Of a DNA stretch of 64,000 nt, positions 6,775-33,157 are shown piece after piece. This stretch comes from Phycisphaerae bacterium (GTDB lineage: Bacteria; Planctomycetota; Phycisphaerae; UBA1845). The notes beneath the pieces are model-generated. The model was not told the DNA's origin. It saw only the letters and a list, made by a program, of their open reading frames with translations, and made no database searches. Made by a program: the position numbers and the translations under genes. How positions within the stretch are numbered: position 1 is the stretch's first letter; every line of letters starts with the position of its first letter. Location: the NCBI GenBank assembly GCA_963666835.2, contig CAXXGO010000001.1, positions 32,001 through 96,000 of the forward strand, given 5' to 3'.

Positions 6775-6968
6775 GCGTTGTAGGGCGGCGCTTGCGGGCC
6801 GGTCTGCATGAGAGGTTGATTCCCCCGGAGGCGGGCGGGACTGCTTTCGGGATGACATAAGAACCCGGACGTCGGGCGAAGGTCAAGGTGCCGACCGGCG
6901 AAAGGAATGAGGCCGTATCGCGGTGGTTAAGTCTGCGAAACGGCAATGGACTACGAAGGAGAGATGTG

Positions 6969-7430: not shown

Positions 7431-7488
7431 GCTCGACTCGTTACGTTCGGATCGTCTGAAGAGGGGGGCGGCTCCGACGCGCAATATC

Positions 7489-11949: not shown

Positions 11950-13543
11950 TGCTCGCTCAAAGAAGATCCTGGCTATTGACTGGGATGTGCGTACGTTGCG
12001 GATCGTCCATGCGCAGCTCGGCAAACGCGGGGCGACCGTGGAACAGGTGTTGGCGGTCCCGCTGGGCAAGGATGTCGACCCCGGCGATCCGGAACAGATG
12101 GGCCGGCACATCCGCCGGGCGCTGGATCAGGAAGGTATCCGCACGCGTCATGCGATGGTCGATGTTCCCCGCGATCAGGCGATTCTCAACACGTTGAACC
12201 TCCCGGTAGCCGTTCCCGAGGGACTCCCCGGAATGGTGGAGATCCAGGTCGCCAAGGAGCTGCCCTTTCCGATCAGCGACGCGGTGATCGATTATGCGGT
12301 CGGAGAGCCGGTTGATGGTTCGCCGACGGCCGAGGTGCTGGTAGCGGCGATTCGCCGCGAGGTTTTGGCCCAGTACGAGGCGACGCTGGTAACGGCCGGT
12401 CTGAGGCCGCTACGGATCGGGTTCCGGCCCTTTGCGGACAAGATCGCGGTTTGCGCGCTGCTAAAGCACGCGATGCCGGAGCGGGTTCTGTTCATCGATG
12501 TTCGGCCGACCCTTTCCGAGATCGATTTCCTGCGGCATGGAGCGTTGGAGTTCTCCCGTGCCGCCCCCGTAGTCATCCCCGAGAACCTTGATGACGGATC
12601 GCGTCTTTCGCTGGTGCGGCCGGCGAGTTCGGGGGAGGTCGGCGACGACGAATCTCCGGCGATTGACGAGCCTCGTGTGTCCGGCGGGGCGCTCGCCGAG
12701 GTGATTCGATCTCTGGTTATCGAGGTCCGCCGGTCGATCGAGGCTTATCGGGCCAGCGATCCCGGGGCGAGAATCGATCATGCGGTGATCGGCGGCGATC
12801 TCGGCATTGAAGAGCCTTTGGCCGAGGCAATCCAGCGCGAGCTGCAGATGACGGCCGAGGTGTTCAACCCGGCCTCGACGTTCGGGTGGGAACCTGACCA
12901 GGGTGCGGCGGCTTCGGCGTATGCGGCCACGTTGGGCATGGTGTTGGCCCAGGCGGATCCGGCTACGCTCCACTTCGATTTCCTTCACCCCAAGAAAGTG
13001 GAATCGGCGGCGAAGAAGCGACTCAAGAAGGCGCCGGTGTTGGCGGCGGCCGTGCTGTTGCTGGCCGCGGCGGGTCCGGTCTTTCTTTATGGGATAACCA
13101 AGGATGATCGCGAGGCGCTGGCGAGCATTGAGAAGCGAATCGCCGAGTTGAAGAGCAATTCCGGAAGTAACAAGAAGTTCCTCAAGTTGGTGGACGACCT
13201 TCGGGACTTCAACGAGCAGTATATCTGGGTGGATGTTCTGGCGGATGCCCTGAGCGTGTTGCCGTCGAATGAAGAGCTGGTCATCAACCACGCGTCGTTC
13301 AACCAGGAGGAGGGCCGCCTGGTCCTCAAGACGCAGACGAAGCGGCGCGAGATTGCCAGCGAGGTGATACGGATGCTGGAGGAGGAGTTTCGCAGACCCG
13401 GCAGTACGCTACCGCGGTTCAAGGTGACCATGCGGTCGCAATCGGAGAAGGACGGAGAGAAGTATCCGTATTCGCAGGATCTGCAGATTATGATTCTGGC
13501 GGACGGTTTGGTGCAAGAGGGGTTGGCCAGTCGTTCGCGGTAG
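11924..13543 (+). CDS. PilM-like actin-fold domain + TM + PilN-like periplasmic domain (GspL-type assembly protein)
   Basis: ILAIDWD..TLRIV, ELPFP...AVIDY, VLVAA, EVRRSIEAY, IGG motifs; single TM near residue 375; start uncertain. Confidence 0.8.
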   Translation: MKRISVSVNARSKKILAIDWDVRTLRIVHAQLGKRGATVEQVLAVPLGKDVDPGDPEQMGRHIRRALDQEGIRTRHAMVDVPRDQAILNTLNLPVAVPEGLPGMVEIQVAKELPFPISDAVIDYAVGEPVDGSPTAEVLVAAIRREVLAQYEATLVTAGLRPLRIGFRPFADKIAVCALLKHAMPERVLFIDVRPTLSEIDFLRHGALEFSRAAPVVIPENLDDGSRLSLVRPASSGEVGDDESPAIDEPRVSGGALAEVIRSLVIEVRRSIEAYRASDPGARIDHAVIGGDLGIEEPLAEAIQRELQMTAEVFNPASTFGWEPDQGAAASAYAATLGMVLAQADPATLHFDFLHPKKVESAAKKRLKKAPVLAAAVLLLAAAGPVFLYGITKDDREALASIEKRIAELKSNSGSNKKFLKLVDDLRDFNEQYIWVDVLADALSVLPSNEELVINHASFNQEEGRLVLKTQTKRREIASEVIRMLEEEFRRPGSTLPRFKVTMRSQSEKDGEKYPYSQDLQIMILADGLVQEGLASRSR

Positions 13544-13578
13544 GGTCGGACGCGAGGCGATCGAGTTTGAGGTGATCG

Positions 13579-15129
13579 ATGGATCGGCGTACTAAGATTC
13601 TAGGCGGCGTGTTTCTCGCGATCGTCTGCTACGCGTTGATTGCCAACGTGGCCTATCCGAGCTGGATCAAACCACTCCTCGAGACCGGTGAGCGCGTCGC
13701 CGAGCAGCAGGAAGAACTCGACAAACTGGAGGCCGGGGAAGCTGAAGTCCAGATGGCGAAGCTGGAATACGGCGAGTTACTCGATCGGATGAGTTCGTTT
13801 GACGCGGCCAAAGCGGAGAACGACCTGCGCGAGCGGCTGAACCAGTTAGTGGGAAAGCACGGACTGGAGGAAGTGACCACATCGGGCGGCGGTCGGGTCA
13901 GCCGGTACAAGAAGACCGACTTCGAGACAATGAACCTCTCGCTCAGTGCCACCGGCACTCTGCGTGGGGTGATCGGGTTCCTGAAGGACCTTTCGGAACT
14001 GCCGCACGTGCTCCGGCTGGGTAATGTGGCGATGTTTCCGTCCCGGTCTTCGCGCAAGGGACGGGCGGGTACACAGATTCAACTGCGGGTGCCGCTCGAA
14101 GTGGCCGTGCTTCCGCAGCAGAGGATTCTCGGGAATCTGCTGAAGGACGAGGATCTCAAACAACCCGAGTCATACGTACGGCACGAAGGGCGCAATTACT
14201 CGGAGATCTGGGAGCGGACTCCCTTTACCGAGTTCGTGCCGCCCGAACCGTTGGTCGCCAACGCCGGGCGGACCATCAATGTGGAGTTGAACACGCCGAC
14301 GTCCATGCAGGGTTCTGCGACCGGGGGGGACGGCAACTACACTTACCTCTGGTCTCCGGAGGAGGGGTTGAGTGATCCGAATACCGCGCGCCCGAAGCTC
14401 GACACGTCTACGACGTGGAAGCGGGACTATACCTTGACGGTCACCGACGGGCTGGAGGAGAAGTCGACCTCGACCGTCACGGTGACGATTCGCGAGAAGG
14501 CTCCGGCGGTCACCGAGACGCGTCCGACGGAACCGCCCAAGCCGGTCGGACCGCAGCGCTGGGCGGAAAACAACCGGATGAAGCTGCTTATGGCGCTGAT
14601 GCATAGGGAGGGTGACGTTCGCCTCGACGAGGTGATGGTCTTCCACCTGAAGTCGAAGGAGACGACTTATCACGAGTTGGGGGCCGAGTTCGACGGCGGC
14701 GAGTTGGTCTTTGTGCATCCGCGCGGCGCGATCAGCCGCCGGAAGGACGACTACTTCATCTACCCGCTGGGCTGCACGCTCAATCAGGACATCCGTATGG
14801 AGGAGGCCGGCGACTATCCTGTGCTCCAGGCTGCCGCCTACAGATTGAGTGGCATAGTCCTGGAGACGACCCCGGAAACCGGGGCGGTTTTGGGGCAACC
14901 TGCTTCGACCCCGTCGGGTGGCGGCCCGGAAGAGGAAGAAACGCCCGTGGTCGAGGAGCAGGGCAGTGCCACAACCGAGACTCCGAGCGCGCCTGGGCCC
15001 AAAGTTGCCCCTGCGGCGGCGCCGGCGTCCCGCGATCCTAACGAAGACCGTACTGAGCGAGTAGCCGACAAGCCCAAAAAGAAGAAGAAGAGCAGCCGCC
15101 GTCGGGGCGGGCGAAAGAAGGGGCGTTAG
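13579..15129 (+). CDS. PilO/GspM-like protein fused to a PKD/Ig-like domain and a further periplasmic domain
   Basis: N-terminal TM and coiled coil, L...GTL..VIGFL..L..LP.VLR ferredoxin-like motif, then ANAG...ATGGDGNYTYLWSP..GLSDP...YTLTVTD Ig-like repeat; Lys/Arg-rich tail. Confidence 0.7.
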   Translation: MDRRTKILGGVFLAIVCYALIANVAYPSWIKPLLETGERVAEQQEELDKLEAGEAEVQMAKLEYGELLDRMSSFDAAKAENDLRERLNQLVGKHGLEEVTTSGGGRVSRYKKTDFETMNLSLSATGTLRGVIGFLKDLSELPHVLRLGNVAMFPSRSSRKGRAGTQIQLRVPLEVAVLPQQRILGNLLKDEDLKQPESYVRHEGRNYSEIWERTPFTEFVPPEPLVANAGRTINVELNTPTSMQGSATGGDGNYTYLWSPEEGLSDPNTARPKLDTSTTWKRDYTLTVTDGLEEKSTSTVTVTIREKAPAVTETRPTEPPKPVGPQRWAENNRMKLLMALMHREGDVRLDEVMVFHLKSKETTYHELGAEFDGGELVFVHPRGAISRRKDDYFIYPLGCTLNQDIRMEEAGDYPVLQAAAYRLSGIVLETTPETGAVLGQPASTPSGGGPEEEETPVVEEQGSATTETPSAPGPKVAPAAAPASRDPNEDRTERVADKPKKKKKSSRRRGGRKKGR

Positions 15130-15255
15130 TCTCGCAGGCAGCGAGGACGAGACTGCCGGCGTCGTATGTTGGCGCCGTTGACAATAGCAGGCGAGGGCCA
15201 TTGAGCCACAGTAAGACCACCCCTGATGTGGGGTGTAGTAAGAGGAGAGGTTGCC

Positions 15256-18200
15256 ATGAACGCACGGCCGAATGACTCAATCCAGCAAACGCTACGTCGT
15301 CTCGGCGTGGGGCTGGCGGTTGTCGTGTTTGGCTTGTCGGCCGCGGTCGGTTATGCGCAGTCTCCGCCGCCGAGCGGAAACGAAAAGACCAACAAGAAGG
15401 CGCCAGGGGCTAAAGAGACTCCGGGCGACAAGACTCCGAGCAGCAAGAGGGCTTCGAGCCCCAGGCGGGCTCCGAAAGCCAAGGAGGACGCCGGCGATAA
15501 GAAACCGTCTCGACGTACGAAGCCTCCGAGTGACAAGAAGACGAGCGATTCCGACGAAAAAGCCGCGGACGGTTCGAAATCCGCCGAGGAAGAAGACTCC
15601 AAGAGTAGCCGACCGGCGCAGCGGACCCACCGTCGTCCCGCCGGTGAGGAGAAAGAAGACACCAAAGAGTCTGATCCGAAAGAGCCGAGCCCGACCGGCC
15701 CGAAGAAGGTCGAGGAGAAGCCGGAGATAGACGCCGACCTGCGGCGACAGGTCGATGCCTTGATAGACTCTCCACCGGAGGATGCCGAGGATTCCGAGAA
15801 GCCTGAACCGCGGAGTCGCGGGTCGAAGCGGGTGAGTCCCTCCGAGGTGGGTCTGGTCAAGCCGGGTATGGGTACGACCACTACAGGCCCTAGACCCGGT
15901 ACGGAAGGGCCGGAACCGAAGGGTCCGACCACGACGCTGGACATTCCGGCACGCGAGGCGAGTGTGCCGGCCGAAGAGCGCACCTACTGGTTCAGCATCA
16001 AGGACGGCAGTTACGAGCAGTTGGTGGAGGGAATCGCCCGTGAGACCGGGTTGGGCGTAATGGGGGAGAGCCCCAAGGACGGGAAGGTCACCTTCGTGAC
16101 CGAAGAGGAGCTTACGTTCGACCAGTTGATCAAGCGCGTTCAGATGGTGCTGTTCAACTACAAGCCGCACGATCCTTACTGGCTCCTGCGCGAAGACACT
16201 CATTTGGAAGTCATTCGGATTACTGACTACTACCGGCGGCTCCCACGGGAGCGGATGTATCCCAGCATTGAAGAGTATCGGGCGGCGAATCTACCCAAGG
16301 ACGAACTGGCCCTGGTGCTCTACACTCCCCAGGCCGGTTCCATCGCGGATCTGACCGTGATTCGCGACTTCATGCCCGACTACGTTCGGGTGACTCCGCT
16401 TGAAGAGCGCAATACGGTCAGCATCTTTGCGTTGTCGCGCGATATTGAAAAGTACATGGACCTGATCCCCATCTTTGTAGGGGACAACGACGATCCGCGG
16501 ACGTTGGAGCTGATTGACGTTGAGCACATCCTCGCCAGCGAGGCGTTGGAGAAGCTGCGCACGTTGATGGACCTGGAGGCGAGCGGCGCGGCGCGGCCCG
16601 CGCCTCGGCCCAAGGCACGCGGGGCGAGCCCTCTTACCGGAGCGGAAGCGCCGGAAGTCAGCGTCGTTCCGGATGATGCCCGCGGGGTGATTATCGTTCG
16701 GGCCATGCCGGACAAGATCCGCGAAATCAAACAGCTGTTGCCATACTTGGATGTGGATACGACGCGAAGCTACGACCCGGTAGTGATTAAGGTCGTACAC
16801 ACAGAGCCGACCGAGCTGGTCGCGACGATTCAGCAGTTGCTAAGCGCGGCGGAGCCGGCTGCCCAGCCGGGGACGCCGACGAGCAAGACGACAACGCGGA
16901 GACGCGACCGGAAGTCGAAGGGTAGCCGACGGGGATCGTCCGGGGCTTCCTCGGTAGTGCTGGACGAGATAACGCTAATGCCGCATCCCAGTGCCCGAGC
17001 GATTATTGTCATGGCTTCGCAGGACGATGTCGTCCGGGTTCGCCATTTTGTGGAGATGTTTGACGTCGAGGACGGCGTCCACAACCACTCCATTGCTCTG
17101 GAGTACATCGACGCCGAAGAGGTGGTTGCGACCATCACCGAGCTGATGGCGGCCGGGACGGCCGGGACGGACACTTTCACGCTGGTGCCGGACCCGAAAG
17201 GGCGGAACATGTGGTTCAGCGGCAGCGAGCACCTTCTGGCCCAGATTGAGGAGATCGTGGCGGCGGTCGACACGGCTGACGACGTCGTGACGCTGCACAT
17301 CCACCATCTGGTCAACCGGACCCCGTCGTTCGTGGTCGGGATCCTCGAGCAGATGGAGAACACCGGAGCGACGGCGACAGGGGGCAAGGCCAATAGGCCG
17401 ACCCGTCGGCGGGGAAGCAGAAAGGCCCCCAAGGCGACGCCGCAAGCGACGCCGGGCAGCAAGTTCACTGCGGACGATGAGCAGGGGCAGCTCTTCGTGC
17501 TTTGTACTGAGCAGGAGTGGGAGGAGTACCTGGTCATAATCGAGCAGCTCGAGAGTGAGACGATCAGCGAGGTGCCGGTGCTGATCACGGTGGAGAACCT
17601 GACTCCGGACGAGGCGATCAACAAGCTGGGGACGCTCTTGAGCGATCAACAGCTTGCCAAAATGCGCTTCGAGACGACCGAAGCCGAGATTATCGTCATG
17701 GGGGCGAGCGAATTGGACTTGGCCTCGATTCGGAGCCTGCTGGCGGAACTGGATCGCCCGCTGGACATCGTGCAACGCACCTTTGAGATCCTCTATGCGG
17801 ATCCTGCGGAGCTGGTCTCGGCGTTGAACACGCTGGTCAGCGATGAAGCAGGCGGCAACTCCGCCGCCAAGCCGGGCCCGCCGCGTAAGGGCGCAAGGGC
17901 GACGCGTCCGGTAGCTTCTCGGGCAAGCTCGTCCGAACTGACGATTGTGGAGCTCGGTAAGTTCCTGATTGTGCGGACTACCCCGGAGAAGATGGAACGC
18001 GTCGCCGAGTTCATTACCGAGTTCGACATTGAGGAAGATAAGCGAACGATCCGGGTGTATGACGACTTCCCGATCGGGACGGATCTCGAAGATCTGACTG
18101 ACACATTAACGTCACTTATGCCGGGCGATGCCCCGGAGACGGCTAAGCCTAAGGGTCGGGCCTCGCGTGCGACGACCACTGGAGCCGGCGGTTTGCGGAT

Positions 18201-21200
18201 CGTGCCGCGCCCGGCGCTGGGCAAGCTTATCGTGATCGCCACGCCGGAGGAGTTTGTGGAAGTCGAGAAACTCCTCGATGTGCTCCGCAGTGAGGATCAG
18301 CTCGGGCCGACCGAGATGGACTTCGTTAACGTCGAGTACGCCGATCCCGCCGAAGTGGTGGAGGCGATAGAGCCGCTGTTGGACCTACGGATCGAGCAGA
18401 TGATCCGCACCGGAGAACTCTCGGCCGCCTATGGCGGCGGCGGGGAGGCGACTCCCAAGATCAGTAGACACCGGGGCAAGAACGTGCCGGCGCCGGCGGC
18501 GGCGGCGAGCGGAGGAGGCGATTATCACCTCGCGGCCGATGAGCGGATGAGCCGGATTGTCGTTTTCGGACCCGGTCCGATCGTAGCGGCCGTGCGGGAT
18601 CTGGTACGTCAATTCGACGTACCGGGCGATACCCCGGACGCCGTGGACATTGCCTTCGTTCCGGTGGAGCACGGCGACCCGGAAGAGCTGGTCGAGATGG
18701 TCGAGCCTTTCCTGAGTATGCGGGTAGACGAGTTGGTTGCGGCGGGGTCACTGAGTGCCGGTACGGTGGAAGATCCTTCCGCGACGACGCCGAAAAGGGG
18801 CGTTAAGGGACCCAAACGCGGCACCACTCCGAGAAGCAAGAGTGGCGACGACAAGCGCTATCACCTGGCTCCGGACGAGCGGAATAACCGAATTGTAGTC
18901 GCCGCGCCGCAGATCGTGATTGAGGAGGCTACCCGGCTCATAGGGGAATTCGATCGCCCCGATGCCGAAACGGACATCACGTTCGTGACCGTAGAACTGC
19001 AGAACGCTGATCCGGACGAAATGGTCAAGGCTATCAAGGAGATGCTCGGCAGCGGCGGGCGAGCCGGGACTCGCCGGGCTAAAGGGGCGAAGGCTGCTGC
19101 GACGGCCGGCTCGACCGATACGGATAAGCTCACCGTCGCGGCTGCTCCGGGCGGAAGCGCGCTGATCCTACGTGGTCCGACGGAGGATGTTGAAACGGCC
19201 ACCGAGTGGATCGAGCACCTGGACAACATGTCGGCCAGCGGGCGGGAGATCAAGACTTATGAGATCCGCCGGGCGGACCTGCGGAGGCTGGTGGATCTGG
19301 TTATGTACGACGTGGACTCCGGCGGGTCCAAGCCTGCCGGAAAGAAACGCGCGGCGCCCAGGGGTAAGTCGCGCGGTGTTGCCGAAGCCCCGGTGGAGGA
19401 CGAGTTTGAGACGACGATCACCCGATCGGGGGCGGATCTCTACATCCAGGCGGATCTGATCGCGCGAACGATGGTGGTTTCCGCTCCGCCGATCAAGCTG
19501 GCCCGGATCGACGAGATCGTCGCCCAGATGGACACTGAAGAAGAGTCGGGCATAACGGGGAAAGAAGTTCCGAAGTTCTTCTACGAGCTCAAGCACGTAG
19601 ATGCTATCGACGCCCTCTTCGATTTGGAGGCGGTTCTGGATGTCATGTGGGAGCCGTCCACCGATCTGCCGAAGGTCGATTACGCCCCCTTTGGCGAGAC
19701 TCTGATCATCAAGTACCCCGACGAGCGGCGTTTCCCGGAGATCGAGGCTCTGATCGTCAAGTACGTCGATAAGGTGCCGCCGGAAGATCTCGTATTGGAC
19801 CGCGAGGCGTTCACACCGCCCACGGGGATGAGTCCGCGTGATACGTACCTGTGGCTGAAGATGAACTACCCGGATTACGAGTTCGAGCTGATCGACATCT
19901 CGACGATCAAAGAAAGTGACTATCCGATCACGGAAGTCCAGCCGGCGACACGGCAGGCGCAGGCTAACCCGTGTGTCCTGCCTTTGGCATTCAAGCAGAT
20001 GGCCGATGCCGCGCTGGCGATTGCTACCGGGCAAACCGAGCCGGACCAGCCCCAGGATGATCCACAGGAGGATCCCCCGAGCGATCGTGAGGAGGCCGAG
20101 GACGAGCCGGCCCCCGAGGATGACGACGGCGGGTATGAAGATTCGGACGACTATGAGGAATCCTACGAGGAACCGGTTGGCGGAGAAGCCGGCGCGCCTG
20201 AAGGTGCCAGGCCGGCCGGCATGACGGAAGCCGAGGAGCGGAGCAGGATTCGAGCGCTCCTCGATGAGAAGGAGAAACGGCGCACCGCGAAGCCGACCGG
20301 CGAGAAGATCAAGGTCTTCATTGACGAGTCCTCGGGTGGGGTCTTTTTAGAAGGCAAGGCGGGGATTCTCAAAGACGCCGACGAGTGGATGGACAAACTC
20401 AAGAAGGAAATAGAGACCCTCCCGACCATGCCCGACATCCGGGTCTTCCAGGTCAAGCACATTGACGTATACGCAGCCCAGGAAGTCCTCAACGAGATGT
20501 TCAACGCGACGCAATCGCAGCGGCAGGCGGTTACCGCAGCGCAACGCCGCGCCCAGCAGCAACAGCAGGCGGCCCAACGGCGGGCGCAACAGCAGAGAAC
20601 GGCGAAAGGACAGGAAGAGGAGCAGGATAAGGACGGACGGCAATCCCGGCGCGGACAGCAGACCCAGCAACAACAGGTCCCACAGCTCCCGGCCGAGTCG
20701 GTGCGCATCTTCCCGAACCCGCGCGATCGGACCCTGATCGTCCGAGCGGAGTCGACCCAGTTTGCGGTGATCAAGAAGCTGCTGGCCACGATCGATCGAC
20801 CGCAACCGATCGAGAGCATCCACCGGGTGTTCCAGTTAAAGAAGCTTAACGCCACCGAAGTCGAGGAACTGTTGCGAGACTGGCTCGGGCTTGATGAGCA
20901 GCAGACATCGCAGCGGCGGACTTCATCGAGCTCAAACCGGGCGAGAAACGCACGTAGCGGTGCTGCTCAAACACGGCAGACCCGAAGCACGGGCGCCGCC
21001 GGGCGGCTGCCCAAGACTTTGATGCAACACTCGCCGACGGCCGGGGAGCTCGGCGTCGACCCGCGCGACATCAAGATCAGCAGCAATCCGGAAACGAACA
21101 CCGTTTTGGCAATGGCTCCGAAGGTGGCGATCGAGTACATCGCCGACCTGATCGAGGATCTGGAGAGCCAAGAGATCGAGGAGCGTATTTGGAAGACTTA

Positions 21201-24200
21201 CGAACTCGAATACGCCGCGGTGGACGAAGTGGTCGAGTATCTGTCGAGCCGTTTCGGGGATTCCACCGGCTCCAGCACCGGCAAGAAGAACTCCAAAGGA
21301 CGCGGAAGTACGACGACCGCGACAACTGCTACGGGCGGGCTGCTGAATACGGCCAGCTTCGTAGCTTTTCCCACGCTCAATCTGATTTCGGCACAAGCGG
21401 TAGAAGAGCAGATTGCGGAGATTGATGAGCTGATCGCTCAGCTCGATGTGCCCAACGCGGGCGAGGTGTTCCAGTCGGTCGCTCTAACGTATGCCGATGC
21501 CGCCTTGGTGGCCGACACGCTTACGGCGATGTTTGGCAGCACGGGCTCCGCGGGCGGGGGGCGTAAGACCGGCGGAAGGAACCGCAGCGCAAACACCGCG
21601 ACAGCCGCTGCCGGGCCGACCTTCATCGGAGAAGAGGGCACCAAGATTGTTTTCTTCGCCGCGCCGGAGCGCATGCACGAGCGGATTCACGAGGTCATCC
21701 GGGAACTCGAGGAGCAATCCAAAGGCAGCAAGACGGTCCGCACCATCATACTGGCTCACGCCAAGCCCAGCGTGGTCGCCGAGGCTATCCAAGAGGCCTA
21801 CGGCGGAACCAGCGGCGGGCGAGGTGGCCGGGGCGGCAGGGGCCACCAGGCGACCACGACGGGTTTTACGGTAACGCCGTCGGACGATTCGAAGCGGATC
21901 TTCGTCATGGCCGACGACACGACCTTCGGCGAGATCAAGTCGCTGGCCGAGATGCTCGACGTGCCGCCGGAGATCGGGTTCGACTTCCGAATCTACAAAC
22001 TTGAGTACGCCAGCGCCAGAATAGTCTACGAGACCCTGAACAAGCTGGTTACGGATTTCGTGCGGGCTAAAGGGCGCGAAGGCGGGCAGATCGAAGCTTT
22101 TGCCGTCGAGGTCGACGACAAGGCCAACGCTCTGGTCGTGCTGGGTGGGCAGGTGGTCTTCGACTTCGTCGAGAATGCTTTGGTCAACATCGACACCCCG
22201 GCGAACGCGGCGAGCCCGCCGGGCTTCTTGATGGTGCCGCTGAAGACCGCGGACGCTACCGAGGTCGCCCAGAGCATCACCCGGCTCTGGAACCAGAAGA
22301 CCATGCCGCCGGGAGAGCTTCCTCCACAGGCGGAGGCGAACCGGCTCTTGAACGTTCTGATTGTCCGGGGTACGCAAGATCAGATTGACGAGATTCGACG
22401 CGATATCATCGACCCGCTGGATAGCTACACGCCTCCGGCGCTGCTCGCCGAGACGATTACGCTTAAGTATGCCCAAGCCGAAGAGGTGGCGGACGCGATC
22501 AGCCGGGTCTTCGAAGATACGCGCGAGGCGTACCGAACCATGGCCGGCGGCGGTGGCAAGCAGCCCCCGGCGCTGGAAATGACCGTAGCGATTACGCCCG
22601 ACGCCGCCACGAACCAGGTCATCGTGCAGGCGAGCGAAACGAACATGGGCAAGATCAAGGCCCGCATCGCCGAGCTGGATCGCGAGGACATCGCCAGCCG
22701 GTCGGCGACCTCGACCAAGGTTTACACTCTCGATACCGCCGATCCGAACGCCGTGGTGAACATGATCCGGGAGTGGACCCGCACCCAGCAGCAGCGGGCC
22801 GGGCGCAACCAGACCCCGACAGCGCGGGACACCATCGTGGCAGTGGCCGAACCGACCACGCAGTCCGTGGTGGTGACCGCCAGTGAGATGAACCACCGGC
22901 TGATTCAGGACGTCATCGACGGATTGGACAACGAAACCGTCGCAGCGCGGGAGCGCCAGCGCCATGTCATGCCGTTGCGGTTTGCCGCGGCCGGCGAGGT
23001 CGCCAACCAGTTGACCCAAGTGTTCAGGAACGTGACCCGGCGACGCGGAGATACGGGCCCGGCATTCGTGGCCGACACTATCGGCAATACCGTCGTTGTG
23101 AGTGTCAACGCCGAGGAGTATGCCGAGGTTGAACAGCTCGTCACCGCGCTCGACCAGGAGCCGGGGATTGATACCCAGCGCATTACGAAGGTCTACCCGC
23201 TGATCTATGCCGATCCGGCAAGCGTCAACACGGTTGTGGTGAATATGTTCCGCTCCACGGGGCGGGCGCAGACCGGCCCGCTGGACCAGGTCGCCTCTTC
23301 ACCCGAAACGGCGACGCGGGCGGTGGTGGTAACCGCTTCGACCAAGAACCAGGAAGTGGTGGCCGCGATGATCGAGGCGTTGGACAAGGAGTCCACGTTC
23401 ACCAAGGTCATGCACACGTACCAGCTTCAGAAGGCTAATGCCGAGGAAGTTGCTACTGCCTTGCAGGAAGTCTATCGCGCGCGGCGCTCGAACATCCGGG
23501 GCGATACTCCGGTGCAGATCACGCCCGAGGCGGCCACGAACTCGCTGCTGATTCTGGCGAACCAGACCGAAATGGACGAGCTGTCCGGGTTGATCAAATC
23601 GCTGGATGTCGAGCCGATGGCCGAGCGCCAGCGACAGGTTCGCAGCTTCCCTCTCGCCGACGCCGACCCATGGAGCGTGCAGGAAGCAATCAACAAGCTG
23701 TTCCGCGGAAGCGGGAGAAACGAGCGCGATCAGGTCACCGCGGTAGCCGAATGGGGTTCGCAGTCGGTGATCGTATCGGCCTCGCCCGAGAACATGGTCC
23801 GCATCGAAGAGCTGGTGGCCCAGTTCGATGTTGAAGGAGCGGCCGAGCAGGCCGTCCACGTGATCGCCCTGGAGAGCACCGATGCCGAGTCGGTGTCGCA
23901 GACCCTCAACGAGATTTTCGTGAAGTCGGCCCCGCGGCAGCAGGGCAATCAAGAGGTGCCGATCTCGATCGCGGCGCTGCGCGGCTCGAAGGCGGTCGTG
24001 GTTAAGTGCAAAGATGATGACTTCGCCCGAATCCAGGCCGCTGTGGCCGAGTTGGATCGCGAAGACGCGGTCATTGGCGAAGAGGTCCGCGTAGTGACCT
24101 TGCTGTACAGCAACGCGGAGGAAGTCAAGACGGCCGTGCAGGAGTATCTGCGCAAGCCCGGTGGCAGCGCGGGACGCGGCACCGCCGAGTTGGCCGGGGA

Positions 24201-24963
24201 TGTCCGGCTGGCCGTACTGGACCAGACCAACGCTGTGGTCGTCAGCGGGGATCTGACCCGGGTCGAGCACATCGAGAAGCTGATCACCGAGATGGACATC
24301 GCGGGCGAGAAGGGCTCGATTCCGCAGATCATTGTTCTGCAATACCTGAACGTCGGGCGGGTTCTGCCCAGCCTCGAAGAGATGTTCGAGGAACGTCGGG
24401 GCGGCGGACGCTCGGGGCAGCAGCCGCCGGTGATTGTGGCGAACGAGAACCTCAATGCCCTGGTTGTCCGCGGCAGTCCTACGGATGTGCGAGCGATTGA
24501 GGCGATTGTCGCGAAGCTCGATACGGAAGAGGCCGGGGACAAGCCCAACTACCGCGTGATCCGGGTCGCTACCGGGATCAATGTCGAGGACTTAGCCGAG
24601 AAGATCGAAACGACAATCAACGAAGGCGTGGCCGCCCAGCAAGGTTCCTCCGGCGGGCGCAGCGGAAGGCAGATGGCCGGAATCACGGTGACTTCGGATC
24701 GACGGACTAACTCGTTGATGGTGGCCGGGACGCCGACGCTCTTCGACGAAGCAGAGCAACTGGCTCGGGCGATGGAAGAAATGGGCCCCGCGGGCGGTTC
24801 GCAAATGCGGATCATCAAACTGCGCGGCACGCCTTCGGACGAGGTGATCCGATTGATCGAGCAGTTGAAGGGCGAGGAGAGCGGAAGCAGCAAGAAGTCC
24901 GGATCGTCGCGTCGGCGGAGTAGTAGCGGCGGTTCGCGAAGTGGCGGCAGCCGGGGGCGCTAA
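15256..24963 (+). CDS. Giant (~3,235 aa) secretin N-domain repeat protein with no secretin beta-barrel domain
   Basis: GGAG RBS, signal peptide, disordered leader, N0-like domain, then about 30 by-eye repeats of (v.l.yAda.ev...)(pD.rtN.liV.a...i..li..lD); no QVxIEAxIxE secretin motif. Confidence 0.85.
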   Translation: MNARPNDSIQQTLRRLGVGLAVVVFGLSAAVGYAQSPPPSGNEKTNKKAPGAKETPGDKTPSSKRASSPRRAPKAKEDAGDKKPSRRTKPPSDKKTSDSDEKAADGSKSAEEEDSKSSRPAQRTHRRPAGEEKEDTKESDPKEPSPTGPKKVEEKPEIDADLRRQVDALIDSPPEDAEDSEKPEPRSRGSKRVSPSEVGLVKPGMGTTTTGPRPGTEGPEPKGPTTTLDIPAREASVPAEERTYWFSIKDGSYEQLVEGIARETGLGVMGESPKDGKVTFVTEEELTFDQLIKRVQMVLFNYKPHDPYWLLREDTHLEVIRITDYYRRLPRERMYPSIEEYRAANLPKDELALVLYTPQAGSIADLTVIRDFMPDYVRVTPLEERNTVSIFALSRDIEKYMDLIPIFVGDNDDPRTLELIDVEHILASEALEKLRTLMDLEASGAARPAPRPKARGASPLTGAEAPEVSVVPDDARGVIIVRAMPDKIREIKQLLPYLDVDTTRSYDPVVIKVVHTEPTELVATIQQLLSAAEPAAQPGTPTSKTTTRRRDRKSKGSRRGSSGASSVVLDEITLMPHPSARAIIVMASQDDVVRVRHFVEMFDVEDGVHNHSIALEYIDAEEVVATITELMAAGTAGTDTFTLVPDPKGRNMWFSGSEHLLAQIEEIVAAVDTADDVVTLHIHHLVNRTPSFVVGILEQMENTGATATGGKANRPTRRRGSRKAPKATPQATPGSKFTADDEQGQLFVLCTEQEWEEYLVIIEQLESETISEVPVLITVENLTPDEAINKLGTLLSDQQLAKMRFETTEAEIIVMGASELDLASIRSLLAELDRPLDIVQRTFEILYADPAELVSALNTLVSDEAGGNSAAKPGPPRKGARATRPVASRASSSELTIVELGKFLIVRTTPEKMERVAEFITEFDIEEDKRTIRVYDDFPIGTDLEDLTDTLTSLMPGDAPETAKPKGRASRATTTGAGGLRIVPRPALGKLIVIATPEEFVEVEKLLDVLRSEDQLGPTEMDFVNVEYADPAEVVEAIEPLLDLRIEQMIRTGELSAAYGGGGEATPKISRHRGKNVPAPAAAASGGGDYHLAADERMSRIVVFGPGPIVAAVRDLVRQFDVPGDTPDAVDIAFVPVEHGDPEELVEMVEPFLSMRVDELVAAGSLSAGTVEDPSATTPKRGVKGPKRGTTPRSKSGDDKRYHLAPDERNNRIVVAAPQIVIEEATRLIGEFDRPDAETDITFVTVELQNADPDEMVKAIKEMLGSGGRAGTRRAKGAKAAATAGSTDTDKLTVAAAPGGSALILRGPTEDVETATEWIEHLDNMSASGREIKTYEIRRADLRRLVDLVMYDVDSGGSKPAGKKRAAPRGKSRGVAEAPVEDEFETTITRSGADLYIQADLIARTMVVSAPPIKLARIDEIVAQMDTEEESGITGKEVPKFFYELKHVDAIDALFDLEAVLDVMWEPSTDLPKVDYAPFGETLIIKYPDERRFPEIEALIVKYVDKVPPEDLVLDREAFTPPTGMSPRDTYLWLKMNYPDYEFELIDISTIKESDYPITEVQPATRQAQANPCVLPLAFKQMADAALAIATGQTEPDQPQDDPQEDPPSDREEAEDEPAPEDDDGGYEDSDDYEESYEEPVGGEAGAPEGARPAGMTEAEERSRIRALLDEKEKRRTAKPTGEKIKVFIDESSGGVFLEGKAGILKDADEWMDKLKKEIETLPTMPDIRVFQVKHIDVYAAQEVLNEMFNATQSQRQAVTAAQRRAQQQQQAAQRRAQQQRTAKGQEEEQDKDGRQSRRGQQTQQQQVPQLPAESVRIFPNPRDRTLIVRAESTQFAVIKKLLATIDRPQPIESIHRVFQLKKLNATEVEELLRDWLGLDEQQTSQRRTSSSSNRARNARSGAAQTRQTRSTGAAGRLPKTLMQHSPTAGELGVDPRDIKISSNPETNTVLAMAPKVAIEYIADLIEDLESQEIEERIWKTYELEYAAVDEVVEYLSSRFGDSTGSSTGKKNSKGRGSTTTATTATGGLLNTASFVAFPTLNLISAQAVEEQIAEIDELIAQLDVPNAGEVFQSVALTYADAALVADTLTAMFGSTGSAGGGRKTGGRNRSANTATAAAGPTFIGEEGTKIVFFAAPERMHERIHEVIRELEEQSKGSKTVRTIILAHAKPSVVAEAIQEAYGGTSGGRGGRGGRGHQATTTGFTVTPSDDSKRIFVMADDTTFGEIKSLAEMLDVPPEIGFDFRIYKLEYASARIVYETLNKLVTDFVRAKGREGGQIEAFAVEVDDKANALVVLGGQVVFDFVENALVNIDTPANAASPPGFLMVPLKTADATEVAQSITRLWNQKTMPPGELPPQAEANRLLNVLIVRGTQDQIDEIRRDIIDPLDSYTPPALLAETITLKYAQAEEVADAISRVFEDTREAYRTMAGGGGKQPPALEMTVAITPDAATNQVIVQASETNMGKIKARIAELDREDIASRSATSTKVYTLDTADPNAVVNMIREWTRTQQQRAGRNQTPTARDTIVAVAEPTTQSVVVTASEMNHRLIQDVIDGLDNETVAARERQRHVMPLRFAAAGEVANQLTQVFRNVTRRRGDTGPAFVADTIGNTVVVSVNAEEYAEVEQLVTALDQEPGIDTQRITKVYPLIYADPASVNTVVVNMFRSTGRAQTGPLDQVASSPETATRAVVVTASTKNQEVVAAMIEALDKESTFTKVMHTYQLQKANAEEVATALQEVYRARRSNIRGDTPVQITPEAATNSLLILANQTEMDELSGLIKSLDVEPMAERQRQVRSFPLADADPWSVQEAINKLFRGSGRNERDQVTAVAEWGSQSVIVSASPENMVRIEELVAQFDVEGAAEQAVHVIALESTDAESVSQTLNEIFVKSAPRQQGNQEVPISIAALRGSKAVVVKCKDDDFARIQAAVAELDREDAVIGEEVRVVTLLYSNAEEVKTAVQEYLRKPGGSAGRGTAELAGDVRLAVLDQTNAVVVSGDLTRVEHIEKLITEMDIAGEKGSIPQIIVLQYLNVGRVLPSLEEMFEERRGGGRSGQQPPVIVANENLNALVVRGSPTDVRAIEAIVAKLDTEEAGDKPNYRVIRVATGINVEDLAEKIETTINEGVAAQQGSSGGRSGRQMAGITVTSDRRTNSLMVAGTPTLFDEAEQLARAMEEMGPAGGSQMRIIKLRGTPSDEVIRLIEQLKGEESGSSKKSGSSRRRSSSGGSRSGGSRGR

Positions 24964-25172
24964 CCCGGTTTCGCAGAGTGAGGTAAGGCATGTTGGATGG
25001 CCGAGTTCTCAGAGTCCGCCGAGCGGCGGGCACCCGCGTCGAGCGGATCCGGCTCATCAGAGCCGCCCGGGAGGCAGAAGCACGGATGGAGCCGACCGGT
25101 CTGCCGGAAAGCCTGATGAGTGGAAGCAAGCGGTCAGGGCGAGGATGCCGGACCGTAGAGAGGTTATAGATC

Positions 25173-28100
25173 ATGCGCGCGAGCAATAAGGTGTTGACTA
25201 TGCGGGCACACGTTTCAAGGCCGTCGGTCTGGTGGAGTGTTGTCGTTCTGGCGGTGGGTCTCATCGCCGCCCCTCCGGTCGTTAGAGCTGAGAACGGGAC
25301 CAACCCACCGAAGAAGCCGGCCGCCCCTGCGGCGGAGTCGGACGAACAGCGCGAACCGGATGCCGTCGATATGGGCGAGCTGCCGGCCGTGCAGGGCATC
25401 GACGACGTGACACTGTCCGGGGCGGAGCTGGACTATGAGATGGTCGGAGACCAGATCATCCTCAAGGGCGCCCAGCAGGACCTGGACTTGTTGGAAGCGT
25501 TGATCGGCACGTTGGAAGGTGCCCGAGAGCAGAAGGTCCTGCGGATCGTCACCGTAAAGGCCAAGGATGCCAATGAGATCGCCCGGACGGTGGAGCAGCC
25601 TCTGCGCGACATCTTCTACGAGCCTAACCAGCGCACGGAGGATCAGCTTTCGGTCACGGCCCTGTCGTCGAACATCTTATTGGTCGCGGCACTGCCCGAT
25701 CAGATCGACTTCGTGATAAGCGTGGTGGAGAGCGCCGACGCCGTACCGGACGACATCGGTAAGGTCGAGCAGCTCGTGTTCGCGGTCAAGCACCGCAAGG
25801 CCAGCGACGTGGCGGATCAACTGCGGGAGATGATCACGAAACTGCGTCAAAAGCAGGGTTCCAGCGGCGCCGAGGACGAGTTCCAGATCGTCCCGAACAA
25901 CGCCAACAACACCATTGTCGTTCTGGCTCCCGAGTCGGAGCGTAAGAAGATCCAGACCTTGCTGGACGGGATCGACGTAGAGCCGGTCAGCGGCTGGGGC
26001 GAGGTCAAACTGACGTTCTTCCCGCTGTTGCACTCGAAGTCCAACGAGTTGAGCCAAGTGATCGAGGATCTCCTGGAGTCTCAGCAGGATCGCGAGGCGG
26101 CCGAGGAGACGGTCTATCGCCTGCTCATCAGCAAGGCCATGCCCGACGGGCAACGCATCGAGCTTCCCCCGATCGACCTGCAAAAGCCGACCCGGGTGAT
26201 TCCCGACGAGGGGACGAACAGTCTGATCGTAGCCACGGTGGAAGAGAACGTCGGACCGATGGGCGAGCTGATCCGCTTGCTCGATAACGTGGCGATTGCC
26301 GAGGACGTGGAAGTCAAGCTGTTTCCGCTCCGATTCGCGGATGCCGAGACGGTGCGGGATCTGCTGCAGGATATGTTCGAGAACGCCACTGAGCTGACCG
26401 AGGACCCCGACGGCAGCGGAGAGAACGCCGTGCCGCCCGGAGAGGTTGGTAGGGCTTTAGTCTACAACCTGGGAACGGCCGCGGATACGCGGACGAACAC
26501 GCTGCTGGTGACCGGCCGGCCGGAGCAGGTTCAACTGGCCGAGCGAATCGTCAAGGACCTGGATCGCCCCGTAACGGCGTTGAAGTTCCCGCTCCGGCTC
26601 ATCCATCTGGAACACGTCGACGTGTCGCAGATCAGCCAGCTTATCCGGGATCTGCTCGACCAGCGGTTCGAGGCGCTGGAGGCTACGGGGGGCGGGAAAT
26701 CCGCAACGGAACTCGAGCGCGTGTTCCTCAACGTCGATCTGCGGAGCAATTCGCTGATCGTCGCGGCGTCGGAAGAGAACTACCAGGAGGTGGTTGAGAT
26801 CGCCCGGCGCCTCGATACCCGACCGGACCAGGTGTTCGACCAGATTCGGATAATCGAGTGCCAGCGGCTGGCCGCATTGGACCTGAAAGAGAAGATCGAG
26901 GAACTCTGGCAGCGCAAGTCGAGTTTGCGTCAGGACGCGGAATTGCCGGAAGATTCGCCGATCGTCGTTGCGGACGAGCGGAGTAACTCGCTGGTGGTGG
27001 CGTCGAACCGGGAGGATTTCGAAGAGATCAAGAAGCTGGTCGAGACGCTCGAGAAGCGGCCCTTGATCGACGATACCCGCCTGTTCAACCTCGAGCACAC
27101 CGATGCCATTGTTCTGGCAGAGATGCTCGATGAACTGTTCCAGGGCATGGAAGGCACTACGGAGGCGTTCAAAGCTCCGACCATTATCCCCGACGCACGC
27201 TCCAACGCTCTGGTGGTCGCAGCGACCCGGGACAGTATGGAGCGGGTGGAGGAGATCGTCGCCCGGCTCGACGTCGAAGCCGGGCCCATGACCGCGATCT
27301 TCAAGGTGTATCCGCTCAAGCACGGCTCGGCGAACAAGCTGGCTATGCGCATGCAGGAGCTGTTCGACTCTCGCGCCGAAGGGCAGGAGTTGAACCGCAC
27401 GCCGATCGTCGTCCTGGCGGATGAGTCGTCGAACAGCCTGGTGACCAGCGCTTCGCGCGACGATCACCGGGTGATGGCGGACCTGCTCAGTCTGCTGGAT
27501 CGCCCGTCCAGTATCGCCCGGCAGTTCGAGATCTTCCCGCTGAAGCTGGCCAGGGCTACGTCGGTCAAGGAACGTCTCGATACCCTGTTCGAGGCGCAAG
27601 CGGAAGGGACCGAGGGCAGCGCCGTGGCGATCGCCGCAGAGGCGGACGAGCGTACGAACTCGATCATCGTGTGGGCCTCGCCGGCGGAGATGGAGAACGT
27701 CGGGGAGGTCATCGGGCGGTTGGATAAGGCAAAGCCGGTCCGGGAGATGGCCGTCAGACTTATCCAGCTCAAGCAGGCGCTCGCCGAAGATTTCGCCACG
27801 CTGCTCGAAGAGTCCATCATCGGGGAGAACGCCGGCGAAGACGATGAGCCGGCCGTGATTCTGAAGCAGAAGTACACTGACAAGCACGGCAACCAGGCCG
27901 AACGCACGCTGCTTCGACAGGACATCTCGGTCAAGGCGGACCCGCGGACCAACTCACTGCTGGTTACCGCGCCGGCGGACAGCCTGGCCATGCTCGAGGA
28001 GATGATAAAAGACTTCGACCGGGTGAATCCGATTCGGTCGGAGATTCGCCTCTTCCCGCTGCTCAACAGCGACGCCGAGAGTATGGTCGATCAGCTCACC

Positions 28101-29810
28101 GACATTTTCAGCTCGGAGGGCGGCGAGGATGGGGAGACCAGGACCCAGTTGCTGTTCGGGGCGGGAATGGAGGATCTGGACTTCGCCAGCGTCGGGCAGG
28201 AGCTGCGCCTGGCGGCGGATCAAAGAACCAACACGCTTATCGCCGCCGGTGCGGAGGTCGACCTGCGCATGGTCGAGGACTTGGTGTATGCCCTCGATGC
28301 GCAGGAGGCGGAGGACCGGGTGGTGGAGGTCTACCACGCGAAGTTCCGCGATGGTCAGGATCTTTCCAACGCCATCCAGGGGTTCGTTCAGCAAGAGCAG
28401 GACGTGCTGGGCGAGCTAGACGACGAAGAGGCCCGGATGCGCCGCATGGAGCGGCAGGTTTCGGTCGAGAGTCTCGGCAACGAGGAGGACGGCAGCAGCA
28501 GCCTTATTGTCGGAATGAGCCGCCGCGAGCACCAACGCACGATGGAGATGATCGCCCAGCTCGATAGGCCGGAACCGCAGGTTATGATTCGCGTGTTGAT
28601 CGCCGAAGTGACTTTGAACGACAGTGCCGAGCTGGGAGTCGAGATCGCAGGGCAGGATTTGAACTTCTCCGACAGCGCCGTGCTCGGTCCCAACGGGATC
28701 GTGCAAGGACCGGACTTCGATTGGGTTGCGGGTACGGACTTGGGCTCGGCCGGGCTCGGTTTGGGTGGCTTCAACTTCACCCTGACCGGCGAGGACTTCA
28801 GTTTTCTGTTCCACGCTCTGCAGCAGAACAACCGGACGGAGATTCTGTCGCGGCCGCTGCTCGTCGTCCGCAACGGTGAGGAGGGTATGATCAAGGTCGC
28901 CGACGAAGTGCCGATTGTGGAATCCTCGCGATTGAGTGACACGGGGCAGACTCAGTCGACGATCGGGCGGGAAGACGTTGGTATCGTCCTGACGGCCACC
29001 CCGCACATCAGTCCGGACGGCTACGTTTCGATCCAGATCAAGCAGGAGATTTCGAACATTGCCGGTGAAGATGTGCAACTTACCGAGGGTGTAAGTTCGC
29101 CGATCTTCCAGTCGCGCGAGGTCGAGACCGACGTGACGGTCCGAGATGGTGAAACGGTGATCATTGGTGGGTTGATTCAGCACCGCAAGTCGGATGGGGA
29201 GAACAAGATCCCGATTCTCGGTGATCTGCCGCTGTTGGGCCCTCTGTTCCGTTCGACCAGTACGTCAGACGACCGGTCGGAGTTGATGGTCGTCCTGACG
29301 GTCGACATTCTGCGGACCGATGAGGATATGCACCGGATCTCCACCGAGCAGCGCGAAATGTACGATTTCAGTCCGTGGATGAGCCAGAGCCGGCTTATGG
29401 AAGGACTCCGGATCCTCCCGGAAGACACGAAGCTCGGCCCGACCGAGGATTCCCCGTCGAAAACCGAGCCGCGCTTACGCACTCGGCCGGATGAACGCCA
29501 ACTTTACGGTCCGAAGCCGCGGGTCTACGGCCCGACCATCAAGAGTCCGGCCGCCAAGACGAGTACGGCGAACGGTCCGGTCTACGGACCTGCGGTCAAA
29601 CGTTCGACGCGCGGTCCGGATGCGACTCCGCGGTCGGACTCACCGGCGCCCGTCAAGCAACCTCTGGCGTTGGCGGATACGGCGCTGGTGCCGGTTTTCG
29701 GTCCGGCTTGTCTGCAACCTCCGGAATCTAACGCGGAAGTCGAGCCGGTCTACGGTTCGACCCTGCGAAGCAGAACGGTAAAGCCCGTAATGGACGCTCC
29801 GCTGGAGTAA
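25173..29810 (+). CDS. gspD: Secretin GspD with about 12 N-domain repeats
   Basis: Signal peptide; repeated aDeRtNslvV N-domains; LDRPEPQVMIRVLIAEV, ILSRP, DVGIVLTATPHI, VRDGETVIIGGL, KIPILGDLPLLGPLFRS secretin motifs. Confidence 0.93.
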   Translation: MRASNKVLTMRAHVSRPSVWWSVVVLAVGLIAAPPVVRAENGTNPPKKPAAPAAESDEQREPDAVDMGELPAVQGIDDVTLSGAELDYEMVGDQIILKGAQQDLDLLEALIGTLEGAREQKVLRIVTVKAKDANEIARTVEQPLRDIFYEPNQRTEDQLSVTALSSNILLVAALPDQIDFVISVVESADAVPDDIGKVEQLVFAVKHRKASDVADQLREMITKLRQKQGSSGAEDEFQIVPNNANNTIVVLAPESERKKIQTLLDGIDVEPVSGWGEVKLTFFPLLHSKSNELSQVIEDLLESQQDREAAEETVYRLLISKAMPDGQRIELPPIDLQKPTRVIPDEGTNSLIVATVEENVGPMGELIRLLDNVAIAEDVEVKLFPLRFADAETVRDLLQDMFENATELTEDPDGSGENAVPPGEVGRALVYNLGTAADTRTNTLLVTGRPEQVQLAERIVKDLDRPVTALKFPLRLIHLEHVDVSQISQLIRDLLDQRFEALEATGGGKSATELERVFLNVDLRSNSLIVAASEENYQEVVEIARRLDTRPDQVFDQIRIIECQRLAALDLKEKIEELWQRKSSLRQDAELPEDSPIVVADERSNSLVVASNREDFEEIKKLVETLEKRPLIDDTRLFNLEHTDAIVLAEMLDELFQGMEGTTEAFKAPTIIPDARSNALVVAATRDSMERVEEIVARLDVEAGPMTAIFKVYPLKHGSANKLAMRMQELFDSRAEGQELNRTPIVVLADESSNSLVTSASRDDHRVMADLLSLLDRPSSIARQFEIFPLKLARATSVKERLDTLFEAQAEGTEGSAVAIAAEADERTNSIIVWASPAEMENVGEVIGRLDKAKPVREMAVRLIQLKQALAEDFATLLEESIIGENAGEDDEPAVILKQKYTDKHGNQAERTLLRQDISVKADPRTNSLLVTAPADSLAMLEEMIKDFDRVNPIRSEIRLFPLLNSDAESMVDQLTDIFSSEGGEDGETRTQLLFGAGMEDLDFASVGQELRLAADQRTNTLIAAGAEVDLRMVEDLVYALDAQEAEDRVVEVYHAKFRDGQDLSNAIQGFVQQEQDVLGELDDEEARMRRMERQVSVESLGNEEDGSSSLIVGMSRREHQRTMEMIAQLDRPEPQVMIRVLIAEVTLNDSAELGVEIAGQDLNFSDSAVLGPNGIVQGPDFDWVAGTDLGSAGLGLGGFNFTLTGEDFSFLFHALQQNNRTEILSRPLLVVRNGEEGMIKVADEVPIVESSRLSDTGQTQSTIGREDVGIVLTATPHISPDGYVSIQIKQEISNIAGEDVQLTEGVSSPIFQSREVETDVTVRDGETVIIGGLIQHRKSDGENKIPILGDLPLLGPLFRSTSTSDDRSELMVVLTVDILRTDEDMHRISTEQREMYDFSPWMSQSRLMEGLRILPEDTKLGPTEDSPSKTEPRLRTRPDERQLYGPKPRVYGPTIKSPAAKTSTANGPVYGPAVKRSTRGPDATPRSDSPAPVKQPLALADTALVPVFGPACLQPPESNAEVEPVYGSTLRSRTVKPVMDAPLE

Positions 29811-29815
29811 GGACG

Positions 29816-30361
29816 ATGTCGACGGACAGGTTCCGATGTAGGCGTCAGGCCGTTTCCGTACTGACGCTGGCTGCGGTGGTTGTGATAGGAGGGTGTCAGT
29901 CACCGGGTGCCGGGGGCAGGGCGACGGCCGGCCGGAACACACCCGCCCGTGACCTGGTTCGCCGGGTACGGTGCGTTTACGATCAGAACCCCTGGATCAA
30001 TGTGGATCGACTCGGCGACCGCGACCCGGAGGGAGTACGGTTTCGGGTGTTTCTTGACCGTGGAACCGGGACGGGCGTTCTGCACGATGGGACTTTCCAC
30101 GTAGAGATGTATCAAGTTGAACGCAGTCAACAGGGGAAGAAGTCCCGCCGGCTGGTCAGCGATTGGCATTATCCCACCAGCCGAGTGGCGACCATTGCCA
30201 AGCCGGGGATGCTGGGGCGCGGGTATTACCTGCAATTAGTCTGGGCCAGCAAGGACATTGCCGGCAAAAACGTCGAGATGATCGTGTTCTTCGAAGACTC
30301 GCAAGGCAACATCGCCCGCTCGGAGACCAAGTCCTTCCGCGTGCCCAAGTATACTTCGTAA
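29816..30361 (+). CDS. Hypothetical lipoprotein (pilotin candidate)
   Basis: Lipobox VIGG-C; starts 5 nt after gspD; beta-rich globular sequence. Confidence 0.7.
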   Translation: MSTDRFRCRRQAVSVLTLAAVVVIGGCQSPGAGGRATAGRNTPARDLVRRVRCVYDQNPWINVDRLGDRDPEGVRFRVFLDRGTGTGVLHDGTFHVEMYQVERSQQGKKSRRLVSDWHYPTSRVATIAKPGMLGRGYYLQLVWASKDIAGKNVEMIVFFEDSQGNIARSETKSFRVPKYTS

Positions 30362-33090: not shown

Positions 33091-33157
33091 GCGTAGTCCT
33101 CCCAAGTCCCGAAGTCCGTTACCAAGGTACCCGGGTGGACATATGTCAGGAAGGTAG

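Follow-up and report, generated by a model that had tools for sequence, protein, structure and literature searches.

A conserved giant secretin divided inside an N domain between two type II secretion genes in Phycisphaerae

A 64,000-nt stretch of DNA from a Phycisphaerae bacterium (the window; contig CAXXGO010000001.1, assembly GCA_963666835.2, positions 32,001–96,000 of the forward strand) carries two adjacent genes, A and B, downstream of type II secretion system (T2SS) genes. Protein A is a giant, pore-less chain of N-type domains that ends in the first half of a repeat, and protein B is a secretin that opens with a second half. Our results show that this giant split secretin is real and conserved; docking of the two chains is likely and processing is putative. 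A and B are likely two pieces of one giant T2SS secretin, the halves of which would fold together after separate export and join a 31-repeat extender to the pore. An earlier note on this DNA had guessed a planctomycete host, which was right at class level.

Anatomy of proteins A and B

The features of the two genes are as follows, all on the forward strand.

15226..24963, +, gene A, giant N-domain protein lacking a pore, made up of a signal peptide, N0, ~31 N-type repeats and a terminal half-repeat
15976..16470, +, N0 and N1 of protein A (aa 251–415): profile A6 against XcpQ/GspD N0–N1, E 8.5e-12
24805..24867, +, first half of junction 2 (beta1-alpha1) at the C-terminus of A: profile match, followed by an Arg/Ser/Gly tail to 24960
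25173..29810, +, gene B, secretin: signal peptide to ~25289, half-repeat, 12 repeats at 25542–28568, secretin domain at 28569–29312, Pro-rich tail
25413..25517, +, second half of junction 2 (beta2-beta3-alpha2) at the start of mature B: from the profile; co-folds with the first half in the model of the natural fusion L036

Protein A is 3245 aa long from 15226 and 3235 aa from the second ATG at 15256, which is the likely start and the one taken in the earlier note. Pfam recognises 22 Secretin_N stretches in A and no secretin domain (PF00263). A profile derived from the repeats gives 27 strong and two weak matches, with a marginal match to the terminal half (aa 3195–3231); together with one extra repeat (aa ~1452–1517) and one composite repeat visible only in the structure model, the sum is ~31 N-type domains after N0. 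Many repeats bear long disordered loops according to the repeat profile. The modules of A carry Arg-rich loops, and the periplasmic part of B is much more acidic (117 K+R versus 212 D+E).

Protein B (1545 aa) lies in another reading frame after a gap of 209 nt and starts with a hydrophobic signal, as judged by eye. Twelve repeats are found in it by the repeat-derived profile and 10 stretches by Pfam, followed by PF00263 at aa 1215–1381 (E 3.9e-48). B scores 532 bits against the GspD model TIGR02517 (cut-off 351), whereas the PilQ and SctC models reach 257 and 180, both below their own cut-offs. No N0 is found in the B of the window or in any other split B. The A + B pair thus amounts to N0 and about 44 N-type domains, that is, 45 periplasmic domains.

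These observations bear out what the earlier note had read in the two genes, namely a ~3,235-aa protein with an N0-like domain and ~30 repeats that closes in a first half-repeat, and a next gene with its own signal peptide and without N0 that starts in a second half and continues with ~12 repeats and the secretin domain. The count of Secretin_N stretches that it proposed as a check is the one given above (22 in A and 10 in B).

The split point is conserved and is not an artefact

The comparison comprised 78 stretches fetched from relatives and L059 (79 loci, L021–L099; loci and protein families are referred to below by L and f numbers). Secretin_N matches were present in 40 of 40 relatives searched, at 3–67 per genome. 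Excluding four loci for which no upstream A was called, the beta1-alpha1 half closes A in all 31 two-gene loci, the window included, and the beta2-beta3-alpha2 half opens B in 30 of the 31, the exception (L048) being a broken B. The half-repeat profiles were built from 24 of the 31 rows, and the seven new loci (L059, L094–L099) all pass. The hydrophobic core columns of both halves are 96–100% conserved in the split rows, as high as in the fused forms described below, and pairwise identity between genomes is 0.28 and 0.39 for the halves compared with 0.34 and 0.33 for the adjoining full repeats. The split point, whose conservation in homologues the earlier note had wanted checked, is therefore conserved.

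Versions in a single open reading frame (ORF) are common in the class, and a break introduced by an assembly or sequencing error into one long gene would look similar. The chance of this is negligible, since single contigs of runs X1, X2 and X3 from two studies (X1 possibly being the source of the assembly) cover 15000–30000 unbroken and leave the junction unchanged, the identical split occurs in 30 other genomes, and B is read in another frame, starts 209 nt further on and carries a signal peptide of its own. The strain of the second study differs by 31–37 letters over 15000–30000, with none between 24025 and 26636. The artefact that the earlier note had named as a possible refutation is thereby ruled out. 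Two other loci (L047:10249 and L048:9666, in strand coordinates) contain an in-frame TAG inside gene A, away from both junctions and with no new signal peptide, possibly through assembly errors or decay.

Natural fusions and predicted co-folding of the halves

A profile made from B matches 91 of 201 genomes of the class, and the strong matches beyond the window's family are mostly single frames of 2,400–6,200 aa. At least 18 single-ORF proteins from families f2, f4, f6, f8 and f20 contain the first half, a linker of 91–337 aa and the second half in one chain. In an AlphaFold model of one such fusion (L036), both halves have pLDDT 91–97 and the linker is disordered. Residues 83–249 superpose as one domain of 65–69 residues on PilQ (4av2; 69 residues, rmsd 2.2, Z 9.3) and on the N1 domain of EscC (3gr5; rmsd 2.6, Z 8.9). 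The two halves of junction 2 are thus predicted to fold into one N domain in single-gene relatives.

The conserved split point, the natural fusions predicted as one N domain and the conservation of the core together support the domain complementation proposed in the earlier note, and we infer that the halves pair in trans in the two chains of the window. Against this, the models are of single chains, in which the covalent linker favours pairing, their folds resemble solved N domains, and the superposition Z scores of 7–9 are modest. It could also be argued that the half-domains are inert leftovers of fission and that A acts apart from B as a loose linker, as proposed for RhcC1. There is precedent for a pore-less N-domain protein beside a separate pore (PMC3459982, PMC3574062), and in another planctomycete family a paralogue without a pore is encoded ~11 kb away from a pore gene that has its own N0-like start. 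We nevertheless regard this as very improbable, as the conservation of both halves is like that of intact repeats, clean two-gene loci show no other recurrent breakpoint, and B is without N0 and hence without the connection that normally leads to the inner-membrane platform.

A second junction inside protein A

Protein A contains another junction (aa ~1525–1730) of the same design as junction 2. Neither it nor the signal-like motifs at the junctions had been noticed in the earlier note.

19798..19902, +, first half of junction 1 (strand-helix-strand), from the structure model
19969..20034, +, internal signal-like motif PCVLP...GQ (aa 1582–1603), a predicted processing site with an acidic low-complexity linker behind it
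20302..20415, +, second half of junction 1 (beta2-beta3-alpha2), from the structure model

Residues 70–280 of the junction 1 model superpose as one domain on GspD N1 (3ezj; 69 residues, rmsd 2.5, Z 7.5), so that these halves, too, are predicted to co-fold into a single N domain. The junction 1 profile is a one-round profile, the iterated version having drifted onto ordinary repeats.

The motif PCVLP...[AG]Q occurs in 29 copies among the giants, and PCVLP is retained across families. [AG]Q terminates 20 of the 29 copies, compared with a background of 9–11% (not corrected for kinship). In L092, L093 and P0114 (family f2 type) the motif is tandemly doubled; L092 and L093 have a short Cys-x-x-Cys segment between the copies. 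Protein A is the sole significant match to the motif among 24,860 ORFs of its own genome, and a genome-wide processing signal was rejected for want of a second one. An internal translation start is also unlikely, with an ATG no more than 25 codons upstream in only five of the 29 copies. L027 and L045 (family f5) have the gene divided precisely at junction 1, the second piece opening with an ordinary signal peptide, and L064, from another order, has an apparent split at the equivalent place.

Signal-like segments in fused junction 2 linkers

The linkers of junction 2 in fused proteins share a layout that begins with a stretch rich in Arg, Gly and Ser. A hydrophobic segment comes next, in many cases with AQ or GQ at its end, and then Pro/Thr/Gln-rich sequence such as is typical of mature N-termini in giant secretins. 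The Arg-rich stretch ahead of the segments was seen by eye. In 17 of 18 fused proteins the best hydrophobic 12-mer of the linker is within the top 2% of the protein body. An automatic count places [AG]Q after the hydrophobic peak in 11 of the 18 linkers (background 9–11%, kinship uncorrected), and by the identical rule 23 of 33 true signal peptides in split B proteins have [AG]Q at their end. Four of 120 further long homologues have a junction 2 insert, with a hydrophobic peak in all four and [AG]Q in three. Gln after signal peptidase I sites has been described for Bacteroidetes (PMC5837995, the accessible text of which does not mention planctomycetes).

Assembly, processing and length of the channel

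The modules are encoded by one, two or three genes in the layouts observed. From these versions and the two junctions, the channel is likely to consist of three modules, which would be A1 (the N0 end, near the inner-membrane platform), A2 (a spacer) and B (the pore). A and B would be exported separately by Sec, and B would form the outer-membrane pore, perhaps with a downstream lipoprotein as pilotin. The C-terminal half of A would then complete the first domain of B, so that the rings of A continue the channel as far as N0 at the inner-membrane platform. The modules would be joined through two split N domains that differ in sequence, an arrangement that would fix both their order and the total length. 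Where a junction lies inside one gene, the signal-like segment of the linker may be cut by signal peptidase I, yielding identical modules. More speculatively, the internal signal could load a second translocon during export of the upstream chain before being cut, and a signal-peptide peptidase such as RseP might then clear the remnant.

From the sequences, cleavage of the junction 2 segment by signal peptidase I in fused relatives is a tentative proposal, somewhat less likely than not; for the junction 1 motif of the window we are more doubtful. The fullest form of this idea, in which Phycisphaerae giant secretins are polyproteins of 3,000–5,000 residues whose internal signal peptides load further translocons and are cut by signal peptidase and whose two or three modules re-join through split-domain complementation into a fixed-length tube of ~45 rings and >100 nm, is unlikely as a whole; in it, gene fission would recur at the junctions because the internal signal stands ready as a normal one. 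Several observations weigh against cleavage. The hydrophobicity of the junction 1 motif is low (best 12-mer 1.35 on average, compared with about 2–3 for true signals), and a positive n-region is missing from it (mean net charge 0.07). Among fused junction 2 linkers, no more than 11 of 18 have [AG]Q after the peak, and in 115 of the 120 long homologues both the insert at junction 2 and the motif of junction 1 are absent. Giants of f12, f13, f17, f22, f24 and f26 have no signal-like linker, some having a long low-complexity insert only, the break in L064 is possibly a frameshift, and the topology is awkward for an internal signal that follows a chain already exported. On balance it is slightly more likely than not that the halves dock and the segments remain uncut, as remnants of old fusions or as helices that touch the membrane or pack between subunits. 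This agrees with the charged residues of the junction 1 motif and its missing n-region and with the many giants that have no such segment. Re-fusion of the A tail, the intergenic DNA and the B signal peptide would yield just such a linker, and L036 and L037 retain a Met before the segment. However, the segment persists in five families although the rest of the linker is unalignable, PCVLP is kept across families and even doubled, and an upstream ATG is found for few of the junction 1 copies. In split lineages a removable signal peptide occupies the position of the segment, which implies that the mature channel does not need it.

The extent to which the repeats form a single tube is a separate matter. 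All 45 domains may form one straight conduit across a very wide periplasm, as the earlier note envisaged. At our own figure of ~2.5–3.5 nm per ring, 45 stacked rings would give a straight tube of roughly 100–150 nm, a length that we consider a realistic prospect, if somewhat short of probable. PulD with N0–N3 has a total length of 20 nm (PMC6882859). An enlarged periplasm is reported for planctomycetes generally and not for the Phycisphaerae lineage here (PMC3422733), and it speaks against a tube of this length that our literature search returned no paper showing a 100-nm periplasm in Phycisphaerae. Alternatively, the chains dock and the distal repeats form a flexible tether, coil or cage to the inner-membrane platform instead of a straight stack, which is a credible possibility without being the expected outcome. 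The repeat number varies from ~20 to 60 among relatives, many repeats have long disordered loops, and the N0–N2 rings of other secretins are reported to be flexible (PMC6882859). On the other hand, the Secretin_N signature is retained by the repeats from one end of the chain to the other, and the additional N domains of Thermus PilQ form stacked rings that cross a wide periplasm (PMC5745081).

Evolution and distribution

A quick tree was built from 75 secretin-bearing rows and two long outgroup rows, leaving out loci without a secretin domain (L025, L029, L037, L051 and L053). Every row from other orders is unsplit at junction 2. The forms split there are f3 and a 34-row group that also holds the fused L038, which requires at least two changes, either fissions or re-fusions given an unsure root. 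At junction 1 the split f5 (L027, L045) is nested in a starred group among junction-1-fused f1, which favours fission at the motif. It counts against this inference that the tree is quick and its outgroups are long and non-monophyletic.

Frames with an N0 that were found outside the class do not exceed 1,606 aa (40 of 201 genomes matched). In another class of the phylum, loci of f31 and f93 (L100–L106, L110, L117–L119) encode a pore-less N0 protein of ~1,070–1,360 aa with a long internal insert, which ends in a half-repeat and an Arg/Gly tail. In three of these loci a pore gene ~11 kb downstream has its own N0-like start, with the junction-2-type second half internal after a linker; five further loci of this type have no pore gene within the stretch fetched.

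Relation to known secretins

The window pair resembles GspD/PulD/XcpQ (TIGR02517; PF00263 and PF03958; PDB 3ezj, 5wq7, 5wln, 6hcg) in its N0–N1 homology, N-domain fold, secretin domain, TIGR02517 score above cut-off and T2SS operon. It differs from GspD, which has N0–N3, in its 45 periplasmic domains, in being encoded by two genes cut inside a domain, with an internal signal-like motif, and in having N0 on A and not on the pore chain, so that N0 and pore are joined only in the A + B pair or in fused relatives. From its sequence the giant would work like a GspD secretin, with a B chain that passes the GspD model, and it departs from the canonical single-chain N0–N3 plan.

A similar lengthening of the channel across a wide periplasm by extra beta-alpha-beta-beta-alpha rings is seen in Thermus thermophilus PilQ, which has six rings and measures 350 Å (35 nm; PMC5745081). 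PilQ, however, is a single chain with six rings from a type IV pilus system, compared with 45 domains on two chains here. The combination of a pore-less N-domain protein with a separate pore protein recalls RhcC1 (NolW)/RhcC2 of rhizobial type III secretion, the genes of which are of different origin (a type III secretion remnant and a Tad secretin) and for which the accessible text describes no half-domains (PMC3459982, PMC3574062). In contrast, the window pair derives from one ancestral chain, has natural fusions and is cut inside a domain; its locus is T2SS, and A + B is collinear with single-ORF homologues.

As for processing, the FbcH polyprotein of Bradyrhizobium is said to yield two proteins, cytochrome b and c1, from one gene by cleavage behind an internal segment that resembles a signal. 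Its upstream part is reportedly a membrane protein that sets the topology; in the giants a soluble periplasmic chain takes that place, and cleavage is putative. The literature search, in which few subscription journals were covered, turned up no account of giant or split secretins in planctomycetes and no case of a bacterial periplasmic polyprotein. Secretins are not mentioned in the accessible main text of the giant-gene preprint (10.1101/2023.11.21.568195).

Gene neighbourhood

The following features flank the two genes.

5572..15129, +, T2SS genes upstream of gene A, in the order gspF, G, H-like, I-position gene, J, K, PilM/GspL-like, GspM-PKD fusion (Pfam/NCBIfam)
29816..30361, +, lipoprotein-like gene directly 3' of the secretin gene, with BLAST matches in 45 of the 79 fetched loci L021–L099

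With GspF, the pseudopilins G–K, L and M, the locus has the operon context of a GspD-type secretin. The I-position gene has no family match, and neither gspE nor a recognisable separate gspC was found in the operon (Pfam/NCBIfam). GspE-family ATPases are located elsewhere in the genome (12 matches). Six strong GspE/PilB-type ATPase matches and three further short secretins (frames of 533–796 aa) lie outside the operon in the whole genome (G000). At the gspC position, 13579–15129 encodes a GspM-like N-terminus, a PKD domain and a conserved C-terminal domain of ~100 aa, and this fusion protein may stand in for gspC. The C-terminal domain (14554–14853) has no sequence match in the PDB, and the label GspC-HR was not adopted, there being no such match to back it.

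The gene at 29816–30361 has no Pfam family, and its Atlas clusters are without a name. A second lipoprotein-like gene (30395–31096), also without a Pfam family, has homologues in 11 of the 79 fetched loci. Both lipoproteins are candidate pilotins. No dedicated protease was seen among the window genes scanned with family profiles, and no promoter or terminator consensus was found between genes A and B.

Just 5' of the operon, 1652–4585 encodes a 977-aa protein with RTX calcium-binding repeats, a possible substrate or surface protein. On the reverse strand, 31473–33105 holds two similar adjoining genes, presumably a DUF1670-like mobile-element pair, and 33783–34778 is what we take to be a release factor 2-like gene whose first residues are absent, as with the usual programmed frameshift.

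Implications

The longest secretin that we found described has six periplasmic rings, and the giant family has 20–60, which would make it the longest of such channels to span the envelope. The finding bears directly on how planctomycetes secrete across an enlarged periplasm. Joining by half-domains would be a simple rule by which a long tube of set order and length is made from separately exported chains. Should the internal motifs indeed be cleaved, the giants would in addition be a rare example of a soluble polyprotein in bacteria that is processed during export by the export machinery itself, which would explain why the genes have broken repeatedly at two fixed points.

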